From: a virus
Taxonomy: Duplodnaviria > Caudoviricetes
DNA length: 64,000 bases
IMG/VR virus record: IMGVR_UViG_3300037067_012588
Direction: 5' to 3' (one strand)
Under the pieces are notes generated by a model. It saw only the letters and a list, made by a program, of their open reading frames with translations. It was not told where the DNA came from and did no database searches. Every line of letters begins with the position of its first letter. The stretch's first letter is position 1. Shown piece after piece: positions 27,301 through 36,019 of this stretch. The position numbers and the translations under genes were made by a program.

Positions 27301-29301
27301 TTACCTTCCACGAAAAACCGTTTGCTTCAAAATACTCTCAGGACCACTCAACTGCGGAACCTGCGAATAATTCTCATCTTTCAAATAGTCCAATATCGCC
27401 TCATGGGCTTTCATCCAATCAATATTTTTGTCCTTGTCAATCGTCACTTTCAGAGCAGCAGTCATTGCACCATTGTATTGTCCACCAATAAAAGCATCAG
27501 CAGATGTCTGATTGTCACGGCAACCAGAAAGAAGAAGATGACGTGTTTTGAAAAAAGCGATATTGGAAGCCGACCTTGGACCAAACAAATCCTTCCAACC
27601 AACACGATTCACTGGAAGATTTCTGTTCCTCGAACGCACAGCAATATCAAAAGGAGGTTTCAAATAACGAACCTTCACGGGATGTGGATTACCAATAGGC
27701 ATCGCACGATCCATACTTCCAGAATGACAGTTATGAACAAAAACTCCAGAAGACAAGGCAAAATTGTGAAACTCATCAACAGTTAAATCATAAACAACCT
27801 CTGTTCGACCAGTATCTTCAACTCTGACAACCTTATGATTATTTGGACAACAAAACTCACAATCCTCTTTAACCAATCCACGTTTTTCATGCCAACGAAC
27901 ATGGTTTGTTTTTCTTGTTTTCAAGACACCTTCTGGACTTGAAGCATATTCTTTTGAACTTGCAGACATTTTTTCACGCAACTCTTGATTCTCCCAGTTT
28001 GCCTTCGAAACATTCCTTGACCTCTCTCTTCCTTCTTCAGACTTATTCATCTCTATAAAACGTTTTGAATTTTCAGAATTATCACGATTCTGAGCAGCCT
28101 CCACATGAATACGGCGATATTCCTCGTCTTTCCAACACTCACGAACCAATTCAGATTGAAGCCTGCAATACTCTTCGCTAGACCTCCATGCACGATAATC
28201 AGGATCACTCCAAACCTTTTTGAAATTCTTCCTGCCAACCTCTCCATGAATACGCTTGTGGTCGTACCACGTCATCATTTTGAGGTTTTCTGGACGATTA
28301 TCCCTCTTATTGAAGTTCGAATGATGACAAACACTCTTTCCTTCAGACATATCCATCCCAACAGCATCTCTCATAGCAATATGGGTAGGACACCAACGAC
28401 GTTTCCCATTTTCTTGGTTTGTTGTTTGAACAAACTCATATCCCTTCAAATAACTACTATCAGTGCTACGCCACTCCCGACGATATAATGGCATCAAAGA
28501 ATCACCCTCTACCAAATCTCCTGCCTCAACAAAAGACCCATCCCTCATCATAAAACGATGATCATCAGTACATTCAACAGACTCTCCATTATCAAGAACA
28601 ACCCGAATAAGCTTTCTTGTGCCAGTTATTCTTGCTGAGTGAGCACGACCAGGAACAACACGACCATCCTCCAAAGAAGAATAAACCCAATATTCTCCGC
28701 CATCCTTCTCCATCTCAGCAATCGTTTTTTCTGTTCCATCAAGTAACGGAATTTTCGTCGCTCCTGCAAGACATGCGTCGCACAGAAATGTCAAAAAAGC
28801 ACCTTCTGGAATACGACGGAAAAATCCTGCCAAAATCTTGTCCGTCAACGGATTATCCCAATCCATGTCGGTCGGACAAAGAATCTGACATTCCTCGTTC
28901 TCAAGAGTATCTTCGTTCCGACAACGAATAGATGAACCATGACCCGAATATTGAAACACCAACTGCGAACCAGGTTGTGCTGATGAAATCAACCACTCAA
29001 GACGCTCAAGAATGTTCTGCTGTGTTGCACGCTCATCACAAAGAACACGGATGTTGTCCTCTTCAAATCCATAATTCTTTGTCAGTCTGTCATAAATGTC
29101 GTTAACGTCATTTACACAACCATTTAAGTCAGAACCACTCAAAGCAACATACTTGTTAATCCCAACCAATACGGCAAAATTTTGAGGCATAATGCTTTCC
29201 TCCGTCGAAGAAACAACGACAACAGGAGCCGCTGTCACAGACTCCTGCGAAGACTTGAATATAGAAAGAATGAAGTTAAGAATGACTTTGAAAACTCCCA
29301 T
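27301..29301 (-). CDS. Caspase-family (peptidase C14, metacaspase/orthocaspase-like) protease containing an intein
   Basis: AVLVGINKY, LNGCVNDV, YSGHG (catalytic His), DA|CHSG (catalytic Cys after splicing), LSGCRDNQTSAD, GAMT. Start set at ATG 29301 (AAGGAG RBS); the ORF track begins at 29355. Confidence 0.9.
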   Translation of the reverse strand: MGVFKVILNFILSIFKSSQESVTAAPVVVVSSTEESIMPQNFAVLVGINKYVALSGSDLNGCVNDVNDIYDRLTKNYGFEEDNIRVLCDERATQQNILERLEWLISSAQPGSQLVFQYSGHGSSIRCRNEDTLENEECQILCPTDMDWDNPLTDKILAGFFRRIPEGAFLTFLCDACLAGATKIPLLDGTEKTIAEMEKDGGEYWVYSSLEDGRVVPGRAHSARITGTRKLIRVVLDNGESVECTDDHRFMMRDGSFVEAGDLVEGDSLMPLYRREWRSTDSSYLKGYEFVQTTNQENGKRRWCPTHIAMRDAVGMDMSEGKSVCHHSNFNKRDNRPENLKMMTWYDHKRIHGEVGRKNFKKVWSDPDYRAWRSSEEYCRLQSELVRECWKDEEYRRIHVEAAQNRDNSENSKRFIEMNKSEEGRERSRNVSKANWENQELREKMSASSKEYASSPEGVLKTRKTNHVRWHEKRGLVKEDCEFCCPNNHKVVRVEDTGRTEVVYDLTVDEFHNFALSSGVFVHNCHSGSMDRAMPIGNPHPVKVRYLKPPFDIAVRSRNRNLPVNRVGWKDLFGPRSASNIAFFKTRHLLLSGCRDNQTSADAFIGGQYNGAMTAALKVTIDKDKNIDWMKAHEAILDYLKDENYSQVPQLSGPESILKQTVFRGR
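27730..28773 (-). mobile_element. Intein (348 aa) with HNH homing endonuclease
   Basis: Starts CLAGATKIPLLDG; block B CTDDHRF; HNH motif VCHHSNFNKRDNRPENL; ends VYDLTVDEFHNFALSSGVFVHN followed by Cys(+1). Confidence 0.92.
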
Positions 29302-29369
29302 TTGTGTTCTCCTTGAAAAAGAGTACTCACAATAGAGAGTTATTAAAAAAAACATAAATCCGAGGGGGG

Positions 29370-29528
29370 TTATTTCTTCTTTTCACTGAGAATACTCGCA
29401 ACCCTTGCAACAATATTCGGAACCGACCTCTCATCCAAAAGAGAAGCGATAAGCATCAACTCAGCAGCAATTTCTTTTTTGCCGATTCTCTGTTGCCTCA
29501 TATTATCGGCTCTTTGTTTTTCTGACAT
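29370..29528 (-). CDS. 52-aa small protein carrying the shared ELxxIA tag (below the ORF-track cutoff)
   Basis: AAAGGAG RBS; MSEKQRADNMRQQRIGKKEIAAELMLIASLLDERSVPNIVARVASILSEKKK*; fills the gap between neighbours. Confidence 0.75.
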   Translation of the reverse strand: MSEKQRADNMRQQRIGKKEIAAELMLIASLLDERSVPNIVARVASILSEKKK

Positions 29529-29540
29529 AACTATTCTCCT

Positions 29541-30833
29541 TTAATCACGAAGCATCTTTTCGAAACTCTTAATGCCATGGCTTGTTGCGTCAAAATAATC
29601 ACCCGTGAATATTGCCCTATCACCAACAACTCTCATTTTTTCCATGTCACCCTCAAACTCAAAGGTTCCTCTGTCAGTATCAATAGAAACTTTGTATTTT
29701 TTTGGCCGCCATGACTTCAAAAAATCAAGAACAACATCACGAGGAATATCACCCTCATGCTTATCATAAATGTTTTTCAACTTAACAGAGAAATCAACTT
29801 TTTCCCTTACATAAACAGAATCTATATAAGCATCCCATGATGGGTCATCTCTTCCTCCATGTTGGGCTGGTTCTGCGTAATAATCTACATCTGCCTCTTT
29901 TGGATTCTGGTCAAACTGCTGTTCACTGAAGATTTCCTCAAGAGTATCTTCAAGAGCCTTATTTGTTCCATTCGCAACAATATTGCCTGCAATGCCAGCA
30001 ACACGCTCGCCAACAGAAGCCCATGTCGTAATCACTTCTGCCGGAACAGGGTCTTTCCTTGGGTCATAATTAACCACTGCAACTCCTTCTGGAAGCTTCA
30101 TCCGAACATTGTTTTCAGGCTTTTGTTCTCCACTCAAAGGATTCCTATCTAGGAAATTCTTCTCGTCAATAAAATCACATACCTCTTGAGACATCTCACT
30201 CGGGTCGACATCACGAAGCTCGGCACGATACTTCGCATGGTTCTTCCAATTCGTTTGACACCTCCTACGACCACCATCCAACATCTCTGTCTTGTTGAAG
30301 TTAACCCTGCGGTATAATCTCCCACTCTCGGCAAGGCTCAAATCATTTGGATGACGAAGCATCTCCAATTTATCAGACGGTGCAAGCAAAGTATTCTGGA
30401 TACGTTCAACAACATTCTCAACAGACGCCGTAACCCTTTCACTCCTCAACTCAGAATACAAGGCATCAAAGTCACCAGCGCCCCATCCCTTGAAGTTGTT
30501 GAACTCTCTTGAAACAACATGGTCAATATCACGAACAGTTCCACGACCACGAGCAAGCTCACCTATCGTGTTAATAACAGACGCACGATCCTGAATGTTC
30601 TCCAGCTTTGTCCTCAAAATCATCCGAAGCAAACGAGCCTTCTTTTGCATATCTCGCTTGTCCTGAAAGTCGCCCTCTGGAACAAACGCTATGAGCCTTG
30701 CAATATTGGCAAGCTCGTTAGCGACCTTTATGGACTTCCATGGTTCTTTAAACATAGTGACATTCTCCCACTCTGGACGGTCCTTAAGCTGATACAAGAT
30801 ATCATGCTCGGACTGATCATCAAACAAAGGCAT
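29541..30833 (-). CDS. Hypothetical modular protein with three copies of the shared tag
   Basis: VANELANIARLIA, ASVENVVERIQNTLLA, ASVGERVAGIAGNIVA. Confidence 0.75.
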   Translation of the reverse strand: MPLFDDQSEHDILYQLKDRPEWENVTMFKEPWKSIKVANELANIARLIAFVPEGDFQDKRDMQKKARLLRMILRTKLENIQDRASVINTIGELARGRGTVRDIDHVVSREFNNFKGWGAGDFDALYSELRSERVTASVENVVERIQNTLLAPSDKLEMLRHPNDLSLAESGRLYRRVNFNKTEMLDGGRRRCQTNWKNHAKYRAELRDVDPSEMSQEVCDFIDEKNFLDRNPLSGEQKPENNVRMKLPEGVAVVNYDPRKDPVPAEVITTWASVGERVAGIAGNIVANGTNKALEDTLEEIFSEQQFDQNPKEADVDYYAEPAQHGGRDDPSWDAYIDSVYVREKVDFSVKLKNIYDKHEGDIPRDVVLDFLKSWRPKKYKVSIDTDRGTFEFEGDMEKMRVVGDRAIFTGDYFDATSHGIKSFEKMLRD

Positions 30834-30844
30834 GATAAAACCCC

Positions 30845-32287
30845 TTACCTGTGAACTTCTTCCAGGAACGAAACAACATCTGGACTCAACTTATTTGTTG
30901 TCCAAAATGAAAACAACTCCGCATACCACTCCGAATCACTCTTAGTTGAATACGGTGTCGGAAAATATTTGCTAAAATCCACATCGGGAAGCCTCTTCCC
31001 AACAATCTCAAATTCTCCTGTCAGAAGCATAATCAACGGAGAAGTATAGGTACTGCCAACAGACTTCTCTCTGCGCCCTCCAGCCTTTATTTTCTTGATT
31101 CGTATCTTTCTCTCATATGGAATATAGCTTATAAACTCGTATTCATCACCCTTCGATGGACCCATTTTATCAATCAGGATGTCTCCCTCAACCAAACCCA
31201 AATCTTCAAATTTAGGAAGTTTGTGTCTCTTGTCATAAAAGGTCTGAGAAACAAGAGACCGAGCATCTCTCGACATAAACTTGTTCATATCCCTATGCGC
31301 AAGCTCATGAAGAAACGCACGAACATCTTTCCCATCTAACCCTTGAAGCTTCTTCACACCAATACGCACCAAATCACTAGAGGTAGAATAGTCTGCCAAA
31401 CGATTCCCCGCAAGAGAACCAATCATCAACACTTTCCCACCTGACAAATATCCAAGACCCTTCGAAGCCAACAAATGAGACACAATATCCAAAAGCTTCT
31501 TGGCTTCTTCCACATCAAACTTGATTCCTTTTTCAACTTGAATATCCCAATTGTCATACTTGAAGTTTGAAAGCATCACCTCGTCAGAGTCTTCCTCGAT
31601 AACATCAACTGGACCAAATAATCCAACAAAACTTTCTGGATGCATTTTTTCCTTCAAAACAAAGAACTCTAACAACCTATTCTTTGACGAGAAATCCTTC
31701 TCGCTCTTCGTCACAATACGAGCAATATTTGAATCCTCAAACTTCCCATCCCTTATGTCTCTTGGCAACCGATAAGTCAAACTCTTAACGTATCTTTTTG
31801 CAAGACTCTCACGTTCAGTTTTCATGTTATATAACGCAGAAAGACCATCTGGAGTAAAATTCGTCAAAACATCACCAACAGAATCAGCAAAAATCTCCTT
31901 AGTCATTTCTGTTCCAACTTTTTTCTCTACGGCCTTCTTCGATGCTATCTCGACCAAATGATATTTTCCACCATTTTCGGTAACAACAAACTTCGGCCAA
32001 TTCCCGACACCAAAAAGAACAATACCATTGTTCAGTTTAATAAAATTGTATGCAAAAATCAATTTCGCAATCTTCATCAGCTCACTCGCAACAATTGACC
32101 TTACCGAAGCTGTCTTGCCGTCTACTTGATTCGCTGCACTATACCCTATCGCAAAGCATGAACCCTCATCCTTACCAGACTCATAGGCACTGTTAAAAGC
32201 ATGTACAAAAGCCCGCTGAGCCTTCGCACTGTACTTCGAAAGATTCGGATGGCTCTTCACTGCCTCAGCAGCACTATCAAACGGCAT
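30845..32287 (-). CDS. ChaB-like N-terminal domain + tag + zincin (HExxH) metallopeptidase-like domain
   Basis: MPF...KAQRAFVHAFNSAY...DE.SCFAIGYSAA is ChaB-like; FLHELAH and PTPYSTKSDSEWYAELF are zincin motifs. Confidence 0.7.
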   Translation of the reverse strand: MPFDSAAEAVKSHPNLSKYSAKAQRAFVHAFNSAYESGKDEGSCFAIGYSAANQVDGKTASVRSIVASELMKIAKLIFAYNFIKLNNGIVLFGVGNWPKFVVTENGGKYHLVEIASKKAVEKKVGTEMTKEIFADSVGDVLTNFTPDGLSALYNMKTERESLAKRYVKSLTYRLPRDIRDGKFEDSNIARIVTKSEKDFSSKNRLLEFFVLKEKMHPESFVGLFGPVDVIEEDSDEVMLSNFKYDNWDIQVEKGIKFDVEEAKKLLDIVSHLLASKGLGYLSGGKVLMIGSLAGNRLADYSTSSDLVRIGVKKLQGLDGKDVRAFLHELAHRDMNKFMSRDARSLVSQTFYDKRHKLPKFEDLGLVEGDILIDKMGPSKGDEYEFISYIPYERKIRIKKIKAGGRREKSVGSTYTSPLIMLLTGEFEIVGKRLPDVDFSKYFPTPYSTKSDSEWYAELFSFWTTNKLSPDVVSFLEEVHR

Positions 32288-32302
32288 GAAAAATGTCTCC
32301 CG

Positions 32303-33550
32303 TTACCCAAAGAAATGCTCTGTCGCTTTCGAGTGATGACTTCCATCTTTAAGCCATGCAACAACATTTGAAGTCGCACTCAACGAACTATCTCCTCCGT
32401 CCCTTACCTTCTTCAACTCAGCAACAGACTTGACCAAATATGCCTGCAATCGCTCCAAGTCCTTCAAAAGAACTTCAGCCATTTCCTTGTCACTGCCGTT
32501 GCTTGCCAGAATGGCTTCATGAATGCTCTGAGCAACAACACCCCGACTCGATGCATTCTTGCCATCCATAACAACATAAATCTCCCAATGTGGAACAACC
32601 TCGCCATCCCTCGTCTCAGTCTTCAATCTATTCATCTCAACAACGTTGTTCGGATACTCCTTCTGGATAGCCTCATGAATACCCTTCGCCGCAAAATCTG
32701 TCGCATCAAAAAAATAAACAGTTCCGACCCTACCACCATTCGTCTTGCGACCTTGGGGTTTTGTTTGGACAGCCCTAACCGTACTCTGGTTCACATTGTT
32801 GAAAGACTTGATGATGCTAATCCACTTACTCCTGTTCATTTCTGCAACAAGGCTCTTCGCAATACGAACCAATTCACTCGCAACACCTTGAAAACCAACA
32901 GACGCAATCAAAACCTTATGTCCCTGAATTTTAATCTTCTTCTTTTTCAACAATGACTCCAACGAATCCAACAATCCATCATCCTCGGGAACAGGGTCGC
33001 CATTCGACAAAAACTCATTGTAATACTCAATTCGACGAGGCTGAGTCCTTATCATATCCAACACAGACTCCTCGTCCCAACGCTCCCATGACTTCTTGTT
33101 CATCAGAATCTCCCCAGCATAAATAACTTTCCCGCCAAAAAAAACAGTCCAATTCTTGGACATGGAATCATACCGATACGAATACTTATCAGATAAACTG
33201 AAAATCAAAGACCCCTGAGCGTGCTGGTCATCCACCGTCAACTCAAACGGACAACCATCAAACTCCCACTTTTTCCCAAATTGCTTCCAACCAGCCTTAC
33301 CCAAAAGCTTCGGAAGCAATACCTTGTTTTCTGTTGTCGCCAACCAGTCAAACCATACACCAGTCTTTGTCCCCATAGAACCACGCTTCTCAAGCTTAAT
33401 ATCAGAACCACCTATCGTTCCCAAAAAACGACCAATCCCCTTATCTCGACTCCCAATGTCGTTCCAAACCTGAACGCCAATATCGTTCCCACGACCCCTA
33501 CCATCTATCTTCAACACCGCAGACAAACTCTTCATCGAAATATTCCTCAT
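32303..33550 (-). CDS. Hypothetical modular protein with the shared tag
   Basis: ASVGFQGVASELVRIAKSLVA; start placed at the ATGA overlap with the upstream stop (ORF track 33610). Confidence 0.7.
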   Translation of the reverse strand: MRNISMKSLSAVLKIDGRGRGNDIGVQVWNDIGSRDKGIGRFLGTIGGSDIKLEKRGSMGTKTGVWFDWLATTENKVLLPKLLGKAGWKQFGKKWEFDGCPFELTVDDQHAQGSLIFSLSDKYSYRYDSMSKNWTVFFGGKVIYAGEILMNKKSWERWDEESVLDMIRTQPRRIEYYNEFLSNGDPVPEDDGLLDSLESLLKKKKIKIQGHKVLIASVGFQGVASELVRIAKSLVAEMNRSKWISIIKSFNNVNQSTVRAVQTKPQGRKTNGGRVGTVYFFDATDFAAKGIHEAIQKEYPNNVVEMNRLKTETRDGEVVPHWEIYVVMDGKNASSRGVVAQSIHEAILASNGSDKEMAEVLLKDLERLQAYLVKSVAELKKVRDGGDSSLSATSNVVAWLKDGSHHSKATEHFFG

Positions 33551-33924
33551 CGAATATTGTAAGTCGTTTGGGAACCATCTGTCCCTTTCAAACGAAACTT
33601 CGGACTCCACTTCCCACGCAAATGCTCCTCAAGTCCCTCTATAGGAGTACTATTAACAATTATTTTGCAGGTCGTTACATAAAATGAACCACGAAACTTC
33701 CCCAACCTCAAATCCACACTCGCAAGAGGAATCCCCATACTCTTCAAATCAGATATCAAATCAGCCTGCAGCTTCGCCTGAGATTGCTTCGATAAACGGT
33801 CCTTCACAATCTTCATCTTCTCACGCATGTCCCAAAACTCACCCTCAAACTCAGTCTGAGGACGCTCCTTACCAGCTACCAACAATCGGGCTATCGAAAG
33901 TAAAGAAGCTGCAACATACTTCAT
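33547..33924 (-). CDS. Hypothetical protein with the tag at its N-terminus
   Basis: MKYVAASLLSIARLLVA; GAGG RBS; overlaps its neighbours by ATGA. Confidence 0.7.
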   Translation of the reverse strand: MKYVAASLLSIARLLVAGKERPQTEFEGEFWDMREKMKIVKDRLSKQSQAKLQADLISDLKSMGIPLASVDLRLGKFRGSFYVTTCKIIVNSTPIEGLEEHLRGKWSPKFRLKGTDGSQTTYNIR

Positions 33925-34247
33925 ATCCCATTCCTCTTCTTGAAAAGATCATCTGCTATCTTGAAGTCTGGCCAACTTTCCATCATCATCCCAACCATCT
34001 GCCCAGCCAACATCTGATCCTCTGGCAATTCATACCGATACCGCCCCATACCACCAACAAAATACAACGCCATCTCTTCAAGACATGAACCATCCTCAGA
34101 CATCTTCGGCGCAACCTCAATAGACATACCAATCCCAAGGTGAAACTCCACCCCAGACTCAAAAGGATAAACCTTCCCAATAGCATCACGAGCCAAAAAT
34201 GCTGCCCTATCCACCAATCGCTGAATGTCTTCGTCCATGTCGTTCAC
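33921..34247 (-). CDS. Hypothetical protein
   Basis: 108-aa ORF in a tightly packed operon. Confidence 0.6.
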   Translation of the reverse strand: MNDMDEDIQRLVDRAAFLARDAIGKVYPFESGVEFHLGIGMSIEVAPKMSEDGSCLEEMALYFVGGMGRYRYELPEDQMLAGQMVGMMMESWPDFKIADDLFKKRNGI

Positions 34248-34250
34248 CTA

Positions 34251-34922
34251 TCAACGAATTTCACGCCAACCTGCATGACTTCCTTCGTCAAAATGACTAT
34301 CACGAATAACCATCTTCTTCTGTCCAAACTTGTCAACGATAATCCAAGAACCAAGCTTTCTGCCTTCCCACAAAACATCCTTGATAAAATCGGTCGATAA
34401 CCCATCAAAATGAGCAAGAATATCCCCAACCAAAGGCATAGAACGCTCTTTCTCTTGCACCGACTCAATCAGCATATCCAAATCACGACGAACAGAGTTA
34501 AACAATGACAAGACATTAGAAGAAATACCAAACCTCTGACGCATTTCCGAGGTCAAAGAATCAAGAGACTTACGCAACCCAACAAAATCAGATACCAATA
34601 TATTCGTTTGAATAATCTTTGCTATACGAAACAACTCTCTTGCAACCTTTTTTGTCTTCATTATTTCCTCAGCTCTGTCAAAAAAAATTGCAGCAACATC
34701 ATGGTAGTTTTCATCCTCAGCAGCAAGACCACGCCTCCATGCCTTTGCAGCATCTGTTATCGAATGAGCCATTGCCTTTGCCAATGTCAAAAGCTTGCTC
34801 TTGAAATCTCCACCCTTCGAAGCTTTCTCTACCATATCGCTTATTCGCTTATAGTCTTTCGACTCAGACAGAAGAGCCTTACGCCCATAAATCTCCTCAA
34901 GCTTATCTTCCAAATTCATCAC
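34251..34922 (-). CDS. Hypothetical protein with the shared tag
   Basis: KKVARELFRIAKIIQT; AGGAG RBS. Confidence 0.7.
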   Translation of the reverse strand: MMNLEDKLEEIYGRKALLSESKDYKRISDMVEKASKGGDFKSKLLTLAKAMAHSITDAAKAWRRGLAAEDENYHDVAAIFFDRAEEIMKTKKVARELFRIAKIIQTNILVSDFVGLRKSLDSLTSEMRQRFGISSNVLSLFNSVRRDLDMLIESVQEKERSMPLVGDILAHFDGLSTDFIKDVLWEGRKLGSWIIVDKFGQKKMVIRDSHFDEGSHAGWREIR

Positions 34923-35005
34923 AATCTCCTATTCAACAATTTTTTCACACAATAAGCAGAGTCAGATATAATCTCATCACCTCGATTGCGTTTCTATAAC
35001 CCATC

Positions 35006-36019
35006 TCAAAAACACTTATTGATCTTATCTGCAACACTCTCGCTAAACTGCCTCTTCACCTCTACAAAAGCAGGCTTGTAAAACTCTTCCGTCCTCAACT
35101 TCCCCAACTCAGCAGGCATACTGCCAAAATAATTCGCCAACTCCTTAATCGCCTCCAAAGCTTTCACTGCCCTCTTATTCTTCAATACCTTGTCATACAG
35201 ATAAATCAACGCATCCGTATGAGCATTACGGTCTGTCAATTCAGACATAGCCTTCAAATGCTTCGGGTCAATCGTGCCAACCTCGGCAACAAGACTCACA
35301 GCCACTCGCTCAGCAATATCCTCGCTAGATACCATGCTCGAAGCAATCCGCTCTACCCTCTCTGATGCTACCACTATCTTCACCGCAGAAGGCTTCGATG
35401 GCCACATCCTCGTCAAATAATTCTTGTAAGGCTCGCCATCGCCCTCATTCAACTCAACAGTCACTCGATTCAAACCAGATTTGTACTTGTTCAGCCAATG
35501 AACCACCGTCCCGCCAAATTTCTTCGCTGACTTGAATATGAAATCCTTCAAGTCTTTCAACTCAGAATCACGAACGTCAACAAAACCATCCGTTAAATCA
35601 AAAGTTACATAGTCAAACGGAACCTTCGCTGATTTCATCTTTCCACTCCTTGTCATCTCAAACTCAAACGCAGGCATCGGCTTATAAGTGAAACCAATAC
35701 CCTTCAAAATGTCTTCCACTTGACGAATATCACCAGTGTCACCAACAAAAACATGCATCGAAATCACTATGTTCGGTGGAAAATATGACCCATTCTCACT
35801 AACACCAGGTGCCCGCATCACAGAAACATCCAACTTCTTCTGCCTCAACTGCTGAATCAATCGCCTTGAAACCATACCAGACTTGCGACGAAGTTGCTCA
35901 AACTCACGCCTGTCCGTATACTCAACACTCGGAACTGTCATATACCAAGATATCACGAAAAGCTGATTCATGAGCTGCATTGTCTGCTCTATCGGAAATT
36001 GCCTAGCTTCAATATCCAT
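35006..36019 (-). CDS. Hypothetical modular protein with tag variants
   Basis: VVASERVERIASSMVS, IAERVAVSLVA; ATG 36019 after AAAGGAG (ORF track 36091). Confidence 0.7.
   Translation of the reverse strand: MDIEARQFPIEQTMQLMNQLFVISWYMTVPSVEYTDRREFEQLRRKSGMVSRRLIQQLRQKKLDVSVMRAPGVSENGSYFPPNIVISMHVFVGDTGDIRQVEDILKGIGFTYKPMPAFEFEMTRSGKMKSAKVPFDYVTFDLTDGFVDVRDSELKDLKDFIFKSAKKFGGTVVHWLNKYKSGLNRVTVELNEGDGEPYKNYLTRMWPSKPSAVKIVVASERVERIASSMVSSEDIAERVAVSLVAEVGTIDPKHLKAMSELTDRNAHTDALIYLYDKVLKNKRAVKALEAIKELANYFGSMPAELGKLRTEEFYKPAFVEVKRQFSESVADKINKCF

Follow-up and report, generated by a model that had tools for sequence, protein, structure and literature searches.

The capsid targeting sequence (CTS) of the internal proteins of phage T4, reportedly described by Mullaney and Black in 1996, is among the closest described counterparts of the element reported here, a helical tag of 14 residues with the motif [VI]-A-x-E-L-x-x-I-A-[KRS]-x-[LI]-x-A. 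Six copies of this tag occur in 64 kb of DNA from an uncultured phage of about 344 kb (Duplodnaviria, Caudoviricetes; IMG/VR record IMGVR_UViG_3300037067_012588); this whole stretch of 64,000 nucleotides is called the window in the following. In T4 the CTS is carried by the variable internal proteins IPI-III and Alt (PMC9026906; PMC7411985). Like the tag, it is a short peptide shared by unrelated, fast-changing proteins, usually N-terminal and encoded near head genes, and in both cases the carrier genes vary between related phages and the label is kept. The T4 sequence, however, has about 10 residues, is strictly N-terminal and ends at the gp21 site L/I-x-E, where it is cut off, whereas the tag is a 14-residue helix that ends in L-x-A and has its only Glu motif, A-x-E, at positions 2-4, near its start. 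Nor is the tag strictly N-terminal, being internal in five of the six window copies and C-terminal in ChaB-tag proteins. Comparison by eye of the tag consensus with the IPIII leader of T4, MKTYQEFIAE, revealed no likeness. Finally, packaging is proven for the CTS and putative for the tag.

A second group of counterparts comprises the encapsulation peptides of bacterial microcompartments and the cargo-loading peptides of encapsulins. These are short amphipathic helices or peptides which stand at either end of a protein or between domains, joined by a flexible linker, and which anchor cargo to the inner side of a protein shell; the HK97 fold is common to encapsulin shells and phage capsids. The tag resembles them as a short amphipathic, position-independent helix outside the cargo fold, to judge by a tag-less orthologue and by the free helix in a structural model (see below). 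Encapsulation peptides serve cellular organelles with metabolic cargo, whereas the tag would serve a DNA-filled virion with enzymes for the next infection.

The tagged proteins can also be compared with the polyvalent proteins of phages and conjugative elements, which are mosaics of zincin, Toprim, nuclease and other conflict-related domains thought to be packaged and delivered with the DNA (Iyer et al. 2017; PMC5512222). The bodies that carry the tag resemble these domain sets, and both systems show shuffling of modules among relatives. A polyvalent protein is one giant polypeptide with 2-15 conflict-related domains and no reported shared linker helix, whereas the tagged system consists mostly of single-module genes, each with its own tag, or of a few modules joined through tags, the window proteins having two modules each; ChaB is absent from the text of the polyvalent-protein paper (PMC5512222). 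The giant phages phiKZ and SPN3US contain many head-internal, ejected proteins, with propeptides thought to target the prohead and with A-x-E cleavage sites (PMC7411985). Their propeptides measure at least 100 residues and are not a shared short motif, although A-x-E is found in the tag as well; moreover, the phages studied here form a clade related by the capsid protein to Bacillus phage G and Tunturiibacter phage Tunturi_5, not to phiKZ. No published description of the tag was found in the literature that could be searched, in line with the initial annotation of this stretch, which had not recognised it as a described system.

Six copies of the tag in the window

Six-frame translation of the window yielded 6 matches to the strict pattern A.[ESN]L..IA[KRS].[LIM]. 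All of them fell into consecutive open reading frames (ORFs) on the minus strand, of 52, 430, 480, 435, 125 and 223 amino acids (aa), at positions 29370-34922. The same pattern gave a mean of 0.002 matches and a maximum of 1 in 1000 residue shuffles. For scoring, a hidden Markov model (HMM) was built only from 33 tags of other phage contigs in order to avoid circularity (outside HMM). The genes and their tags are given below with the scores obtained from this model; L140 is a 7-kb metagenome contig with an orthologous cluster.

34251-34922, minus strand: 223-aa gene; N-terminal helical module (AKAWRRGLAAEDENYH), internal M-KTKK-tag, C-terminal module
34605-34646, minus strand: tag VARELFRIAKIIQT in the 223-aa protein, residues 93-106; 14.7 bits
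33547-33924, minus strand: 125-aa gene, basic product; 70% identical orthologue h124 in L140
33874-33915, minus strand: tag VAASLLSIARLLVA in the 125-aa protein, residues 4-17; 14.6 bits
32303-33610, minus strand: 435-aa ORF, likely start M26 at 33535; N-domain, conserved middle ending in ...KVLIAS, tag cassette, C-domain
32843-32884, minus strand: tag VASELVRIAKSLVA in the 435-aa protein, residues 243-256; 24.5 bits
30845-32287, minus strand: 480-aa gene; ChaB-like domain (1-55), tag helix (62-78), zincin-like HExxH body (82-480)
32051-32092, minus strand: tag VASELMKIAKLIFA in the 480-aa protein, residues 66-79; 17.8 bits
29541-30833, minus strand: 430-aa gene; 36-residue leader, tag, body; 522-aa orthologue in L140
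30684-30725, minus strand: tag VANELANIARLIAF in the 430-aa protein, residues 37-50; strict pattern, 1.0 bits, conserved in orthologues
29370-29528, minus strand: 52-aa microprotein gene; good ribosome-binding site AAGGAG; conserved in L140 (n60)
29430-29471, minus strand: tag IAAELMLIASLLDE in the 52-aa protein, residues 20-33; 12.9 bits

The profile, a check proposed with the initial annotation, placed five window ORFs (12.9-24.5 bits) above the best score of 8.5 bits reached in 20 shuffles, so that shuffled sequences did not score equally. The first copy in the 430-aa protein reached just 1.0 bits, yet it matched the strict pattern, and three orthologues (P0004, P0005 and m522 of L140) retain it as a tag. 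The 52-aa ORF can be regarded as a real gene because of its conservation in L140 and its good ribosome-binding site. Seven neighbouring, otherwise unrelated proteins had initially been credited with the tag, and for six of them this held; the seventh, of 361 aa, carries a decayed copy. Two further copies that had been assigned to the 430-aa protein, TASVENVVERIQNTLLA and WASVGERVAGIAGNIVA, scored at noise level and were rejected as conserved body segments of that family.

Identical residues in the tag copies are mostly written in different codons (for example 7/7 and 7/8), which indicates that the peptide and not the DNA is under selection. An origin of the repeats as a DNA repeat or recombination site could be ruled out in the same way, the tags sharing residues but not codons. 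Hydrophobic moments of 0.46-0.72 were found for four of the six window tags, and for three of these no more than 4% of shuffles reached the observed value; the other two tags were not significantly amphipathic. It can be described as a portable amphipathic helix of two heptads, [VI]-A-x-E-L-x-x / I-A-[KR]-x-L-x-A. A sequence search against the PDB with the tag gave nothing significant, the only look-alikes being designed antiparallel four-helix coiled coils at E = 1.6.

Distribution of the tag in related phages

The relatives came from viral contigs that were scanned with a degenerate DNA pattern and then scored with the profile; they are represented by fragments of other huge phages of 66-181 kb, 22-67% complete by CheckV estimates. 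The first scan was swamped by a family of about 400 aa with the motif 'GxPGLD..VA.EL..IAK.L.A.AY', which consists of P2-type tail sheath proteins and is unrelated to the tag. A very strict N-terminal DNA pattern was found in only 3 viral contigs, so that this exact form is rare in that collection. In five related contigs the pattern was strand-specific, with 31 matches versus 1 for the reversed control.

The tags of the relatives follow the consensus M-[DN]-x-K-K-[VI]-A-x-E-L-[LV]-K-[IV]-A-K-x-L-x-A, in which A2, E4, L5, A9 and L12 are near-invariant (A2 in 31, E4 in 32 and L5 in all of the 33 tags) and the residues at -2 and -1 before the tag are mostly Lys. Since a Met lies at most 5 residues upstream in 32 of the 33 tags, the canonical form is an N-terminal leader.

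In one of the related fragments (G001, 66 kb, estimated to be 22% complete) tagged genes are interleaved with those of the phage head. The order begins with the large terminase, a tagged topoisomerase IB, the portal and two tagged genes, continues with an HNH endonuclease, a head maturation protease with an intein and two acidic scaffold-like proteins, and ends with two copies of a 170-aa protein, the major head protein (phrog_2522) and seven tagged genes. The same capsid family was found near tags in G003 and G004. Two details of G001 may be added here. The gene of the tagged type IB topoisomerase (L121:9150-9902) has those of the large terminase and the portal as its immediate neighbours, and an intein interrupts the head maturation protease (phrog_18299; L008:2891-5155), just as one interrupts the metacaspase of the window.

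The comparison with L140 revealed how the tagged genes vary. The C-domain of the 361-aa protein and the 108-, 125-, 430- and 52-aa proteins serve as anchors that stand in the same order in the window and in L140, the 108-aa/125-aa pair (33547-34247) being conserved. The tagged genes between the anchors all differ; L140 has four in place of the 223-aa gene and another four in place of the 435- and 480-aa genes. The picture is one of a variable array of tagged cassettes set between conserved anchors.

The label itself may be exchangeable as well, as suggested by the 485-kb uncultured phage LR745208.1 (L143). Its capsid protein is 70% identical to that of G001, and none of its proteins carries the tag. 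It has instead at least 7 copies of another shared motif, ...IRLAH..P.LR..LLP.L, which occurred 0 times in the control and 0 times in four other phages. A fuller form reads MTTLRSKLIRLAH.NP.LRP.LLPLLKEA; the sites include L143 10710-11114 and 18337-19392, and in P0097 the motif is also found behind a ChaB domain. It may be a second, interchangeable address label. Such labels look lineage-specific and interchangeable, from which it would follow that the putative receptor is more variable than the capsid protein.

Module junctions, tagged bodies and neighbouring genes

The internal tags of the window apparently came about after gene fusions, as judged from natural variants of the 435-, 223-, 430- and 480-aa proteins and of ChaB. 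An orthologue of the 435-aa protein (P0002, 47% identity) has both flanks, including 'VVIAS', and lacks exactly the 19-residue cassette VGFQGVASELVRIAKSLVAE. In P0001 the N-part of the 435-aa protein is followed by ...IAS-TGEEK-MDMKK-IAGELVVIAKGLVAGG and then by a different C-domain. The leader of the 430-aa protein, together with its tag, sits behind a ChaB domain in P0004 and P0005. ChaB domains in general are often followed by a tag, sometimes at the very C-terminus of proteins of 78-105 aa. Homologues of the 480-aa zincin are often tag-first or have the tag behind a topoisomerase IB module; in P0010 a Toprim module precedes the zincin body, and the junction helix there is below the profile threshold. 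The architectures of the relatives thus include topoisomerase IB-tag-zincin, Toprim-zincin with a sub-threshold junction helix, and ChaB-DUF5662-tag. The N-half of the 223-aa protein was found again in other combinations. The tag of this protein follows directly after MKTKK (M-KTKK-VARELF...), with GAGGAA three bases upstream of that ATG, which is either a relic start or an internal start. Only the 125-aa protein of the cluster has its tag at the very N-terminus.

P0156 is a tag-module-tag-module mosaic. Two canonical tags in one protein were observed there, both internal, and in L140:3809-4762, with one N-terminal and one internal. Such two-tag proteins look like [tag-module] units joined end to end.

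AlphaFold modelling of the 480-aa protein, from an alignment of 75 sequences, gave a mean predicted local distance difference test score (pLDDT) of 89.9. The tag helix, residues 62-78, reached a pLDDT of 53-69 and lies between two domains above 90, which in a model is how a free docking helix would be expected to look. The model and the natural variants agree with the initial placement of the tag at N-termini or at domain junctions. We show here that the tag is real, a peptide-level feature, portable, insertable and found in any position.

The bodies attached to the tag differ widely. The 480-aa body contains HELAH, with the family consensus HELGH, and has no Pfam family match. Foldseek gave weak matches to M1 aminopeptidases, LTA4H, lethal factor, Wss1 and selecase (probability 0.75-1.0, E at least 0.04). 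With its HExxH motif and these weak gluzincin fold matches, it is predicted to be a zincin-like peptidase. Its N-terminus scored 16.7 bits against ChaB (PF06150; cut-off 27), a related L040 protein scored 41.4 bits, and residues 1-60 are shared by dozens of homologues. No GenBank phage relatives were found for the 435-aa and 480-aa proteins, and the ESM Atlas returned nothing for the 125-aa protein. Among the relatives, a scoring tag is carried by topoisomerase IB, a CCA-adding enzyme with an HD domain, WGR, ChaB and DUF5662. A 2H phosphoesterase in L040, weakly Acb1-like, has only the variant motif SER[IV].RIAS, at its C-terminus.

The tag had initially been described as often preceded by Ala-Ser. 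This was not borne out, as Ala-Ser precedes just two of the six verified tags and in both belongs to the upstream module: the ChaB family has a tail ...DGKK[AS][AS], and 'VVIAS' is kept in the tag-less P0002. The tripeptide ASV is nevertheless enriched about 7-fold in the cluster (6 in 2222 aa versus 7 in 18562 aa) and marks module junctions. In the L140 orthologue of the 430-aa protein (L140:5294-6862) an insertion of about 100 residues is bounded by VVAS/V and YKAS/V (the slash denotes the boundary), at the site that reads TAS/VENVVERI in the window. The enrichment and this insertion identify AS-V as a junction mark. It may be a cleavage site, the alternative being the end of a strand followed by a Ser helix cap. 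The herpesvirus assemblin cuts VQA/S beside the capsid-binding tail of its scaffold (PMC4498786), which is only a lead. Internal GTG starts at the AS-V sites were considered and rejected; the Val codons are GTT, GTA or GTG without a ribosome-binding site, and the site in the 435-aa protein reads GCG TCT GTT.

The remaining features of the cluster are as follows.

35006-36019, minus strand: 361-aa ORF, likely start M25 at 36019 behind AAGGAG; N-terminal domain fused to C-terminal domain
35282-35365, minus strand: region of the decayed tag, SERVERIASSMVSS-EDIAERVAVSLVAE, where the two domains of the 361-aa protein meet
33921-34247, minus strand: 108-aa gene, untagged, acidic product; 4-nt overlap of its end with the start of the 125-aa gene
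27301-29355, minus strand: C14 metacaspase with HNH intein, untagged; 14 nt downstream of the 52-aa gene, likely start M19 at 29301

The region SERVERIASSMVSS-EDIAERVAVSLVAE of the 361-aa protein scored -0.0 bits with the outside HMM. The C-terminal domain of this protein is orthologous to a stand-alone L140 protein that begins with a canonical tag, MKSRF-IAKEIVHIARGLVSG. Because EDIAERVAVSLVAE aligns, with a gap, to this N-terminal tag, we attribute the 361-aa copy to a decayed tag left at the fusion junction. The variant motif SER[IV].RIAS.. was seen both in the 361-aa protein (35282-35365) and at the C-terminus of the 2H phosphoesterase of G002 (L040:4256-4915). A looser form is present in an 893-aa G002 protein (L040:723-3404), and shuffles gave no matches. 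This 893-aa protein is itself a mosaic, with a nucleoside 2-deoxyribosyltransferase-like domain and a C-terminal module in common with a tagged 247-aa protein of L140.

All large genes of the window lie on the minus strand. Within the tagged cluster the genes are separated by 3-15 nt or overlap, and the cluster continues, co-oriented, into the metacaspase and fibre genes; promoter and terminator scans gave background level. The other genes of the window encode collagen-like tail fibres, a glycosyltransferase, a RuvC-like resolvase, an SbcC-like ATPase, an NAD-dependent ligase and a Cas3-like helicase. The pair of an untagged acidic 108-aa and a tagged basic 125-aa protein could be a cargo protein with its chaperone or neutraliser.

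The metacaspase starts likely at M19 (29301-29355 region), behind AAGGAGAA, and has a hydrophobic N-terminus. Its homologue in G002 (L040:7353-8237) begins with a lipoprotein box LAGC, MKKRIVTAFALVLAGC. Both features suggest that the enzyme is exported or membrane-bound. Of five related contig fragments only one, G002, yielded a C14 gene, which lies there about 180 nt downstream of a ChaB-tag gene; this may be shared synteny.

Possible roles of the tag

We consider the chances about evenly balanced that the tag is a position-independent docking helix which loads swappable cargo into the prohead, in analogy to the T4 capsid targeting sequence. A protein that carries the tag would be docked to a common receptor in the head under assembly, and the likeliest receptor is a variable scaffold or core protein, not the capsid protein itself. 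The tagged proteins would be enclosed in the head and later carried with the DNA into the next host. The evolving unit is the [tag-module], present as a gene of its own or as several concatenated units. In the relatives each such unit is a small gene by itself, its tag five residues behind the start, and in the window several of them have apparently been fused, which places the tag at module junctions. The initial annotation had already proposed a capsid-targeting or cargo label. That part is strengthened by the portability of the tag, its N-terminal position in relatives and the interleaving with terminase, portal, protease and capsid genes in a related phage, whereas the Ala-Ser part of the proposal falls away, Ala-Ser belonging to the upstream modules. 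We only infer that the tagged proteins bind a head component, are packaged and ejected, and may be cleaved (at A-x-E in the tag or at h-x-A/S junctions).

Several observations weigh against a head-loading label. The tag differs from the CTS in that it also occurs inside proteins and at their C-termini, and what is conserved of it comes after its only recognisable protease motif, A-x-E, so that a simple leader that is cut off does not fit. The tag is absent from the cultured Bacillus phage G and Tunturi_5, and no published virion proteome is therefore usable; no cultured phage with the tag was found. G005 has ten tagged genes over 130 kb with no capsid gene in view, tags thus not being confined to head modules. 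No Pfam family could be assigned to the head maturation protease, which leaves no cleavage specificity to be argued. Finally, cargo made up of nucleic-acid enzymes would be explained just as well by recruitment to a replication site inside the cell.

This last point leads to a docking helix for another partner in the cell, such as a factory for replication or repair, a compartment made by the phage or a hub protein, or for hetero-oligomerisation of the tagged proteins with one another in a helical bundle, with no capsid involved. Many of the bodies are indeed nucleic-acid enzymes (topoisomerase IB, CCA-adding enzyme, Toprim, WGR, 2H phosphoesterase), some tagged genes lie scattered outside the head modules, and position independence is typical of docking peptides generally. 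The heptad h-A-x-x-L-x-x, with Ala seven apart, also resembles helix-bundle formers, the PDB look-alikes (E = 1.6) being insignificant. For action in the same cell, however, it is hard to explain why a topoisomerase gene should stand between terminase and portal and seven tagged genes straight after the capsid gene, or why the tagged genes of the window are co-oriented and contiguous with fibre genes, and we regard in-cell docking as unlikely, though together with a mainly proteolytic role it is one of the two rivals to be taken seriously. An amphipathic helix could also bind membranes and bring proteins to that of the host. The hydrophobic moments of four of the six tags, three of them seldom reached by shuffles, would suit this role, but the tag contains no aromatic residues, its invariant Ala at two positions seven apart and its invariant acidic residue suit helix-helix packing better, and two tags are not significantly amphipathic; a membrane helix deserves very little credence.

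The tag could instead be mainly a recognition or cleavage element of the maturation protease (A-x-E/L and/or h-x-A/S), in which case the fused ORFs would be polyproteins and targeting would be secondary or absent. The near-invariance of A2, E4 and L5, the position of the tags exactly between modules in fused proteins, the enrichment of ASV and the bounded insertion in L140 would all be accounted for; A-x-E is the prohead-protease motif of SPN3US (PMC7411985), and assemblin, a relative of phage prohead proteases, cuts VQA/S-type sites (PMC4498786). The Glu is followed, however, by ten more conserved positions of an amphipathic helix, far beyond the needs of known prohead-protease sites, and at the extreme N-terminus, the place of most tags, cutting would take off about 9 residues only. 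A Ser after a strand could also simply be a helix cap. With the protease family unassigned, and with Ala-Ser kept in a tag-less orthologue and general in the ChaB tail, this explanation appears improbable. Metacaspases cleave after basic residues, and the C14 enzyme could act on the tagged proteins by processing or activating them, for instance behind the Lys-Lys that often stands before the tag, positions -2 and -1 being mostly Lys. Its gene comes 14 nt after the last tagged gene in the window and follows a ChaB-tag gene in G002. The tag-plus-metacaspase system put forward in the initial annotation is nonetheless not supported: the enzyme is untagged, its hydrophobic N-terminus and the lipoprotein box in G002 point to export, and C14 occurs in one of the five related fragments, with none in the 66 kb of G001 despite the many tags around head genes. 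We therefore think it highly improbable that tag and metacaspase form one system.

For the clade of huge phages related to Bacillus phage G, the head-loading label would extend to a general position-independent encapsulation code, by which any module with the 14-residue helix would enter the prohead, with swappable cassette arrays and polyproteins and with labels that are interchangeable between related lineages and have co-evolving receptors, a possibility that we put forward tentatively and hold to be somewhat doubtful. Under such a code the packaged and injected proteome would become readable from sequence. If the tag is an encapsulation signal, it would mark the probable head-packaged, injected proteins of an uncultured 344-kb phage. 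The zincin peptidase and, in relatives, topoisomerase IB, the CCA-adding enzyme and the 2H phosphoesterase would then be candidate counter-defence or repair tools for the first minute of infection. Phage heads would be able to use a position-independent docking helix, as do microcompartments and encapsulins, beyond the cleavable leader of the T4 type. The tag would also offer a simple means of bringing foreign proteins into phage heads. The arrays of [tag-module] cassettes and their fusions would offer a concrete picture of how such cargo sets diversify.

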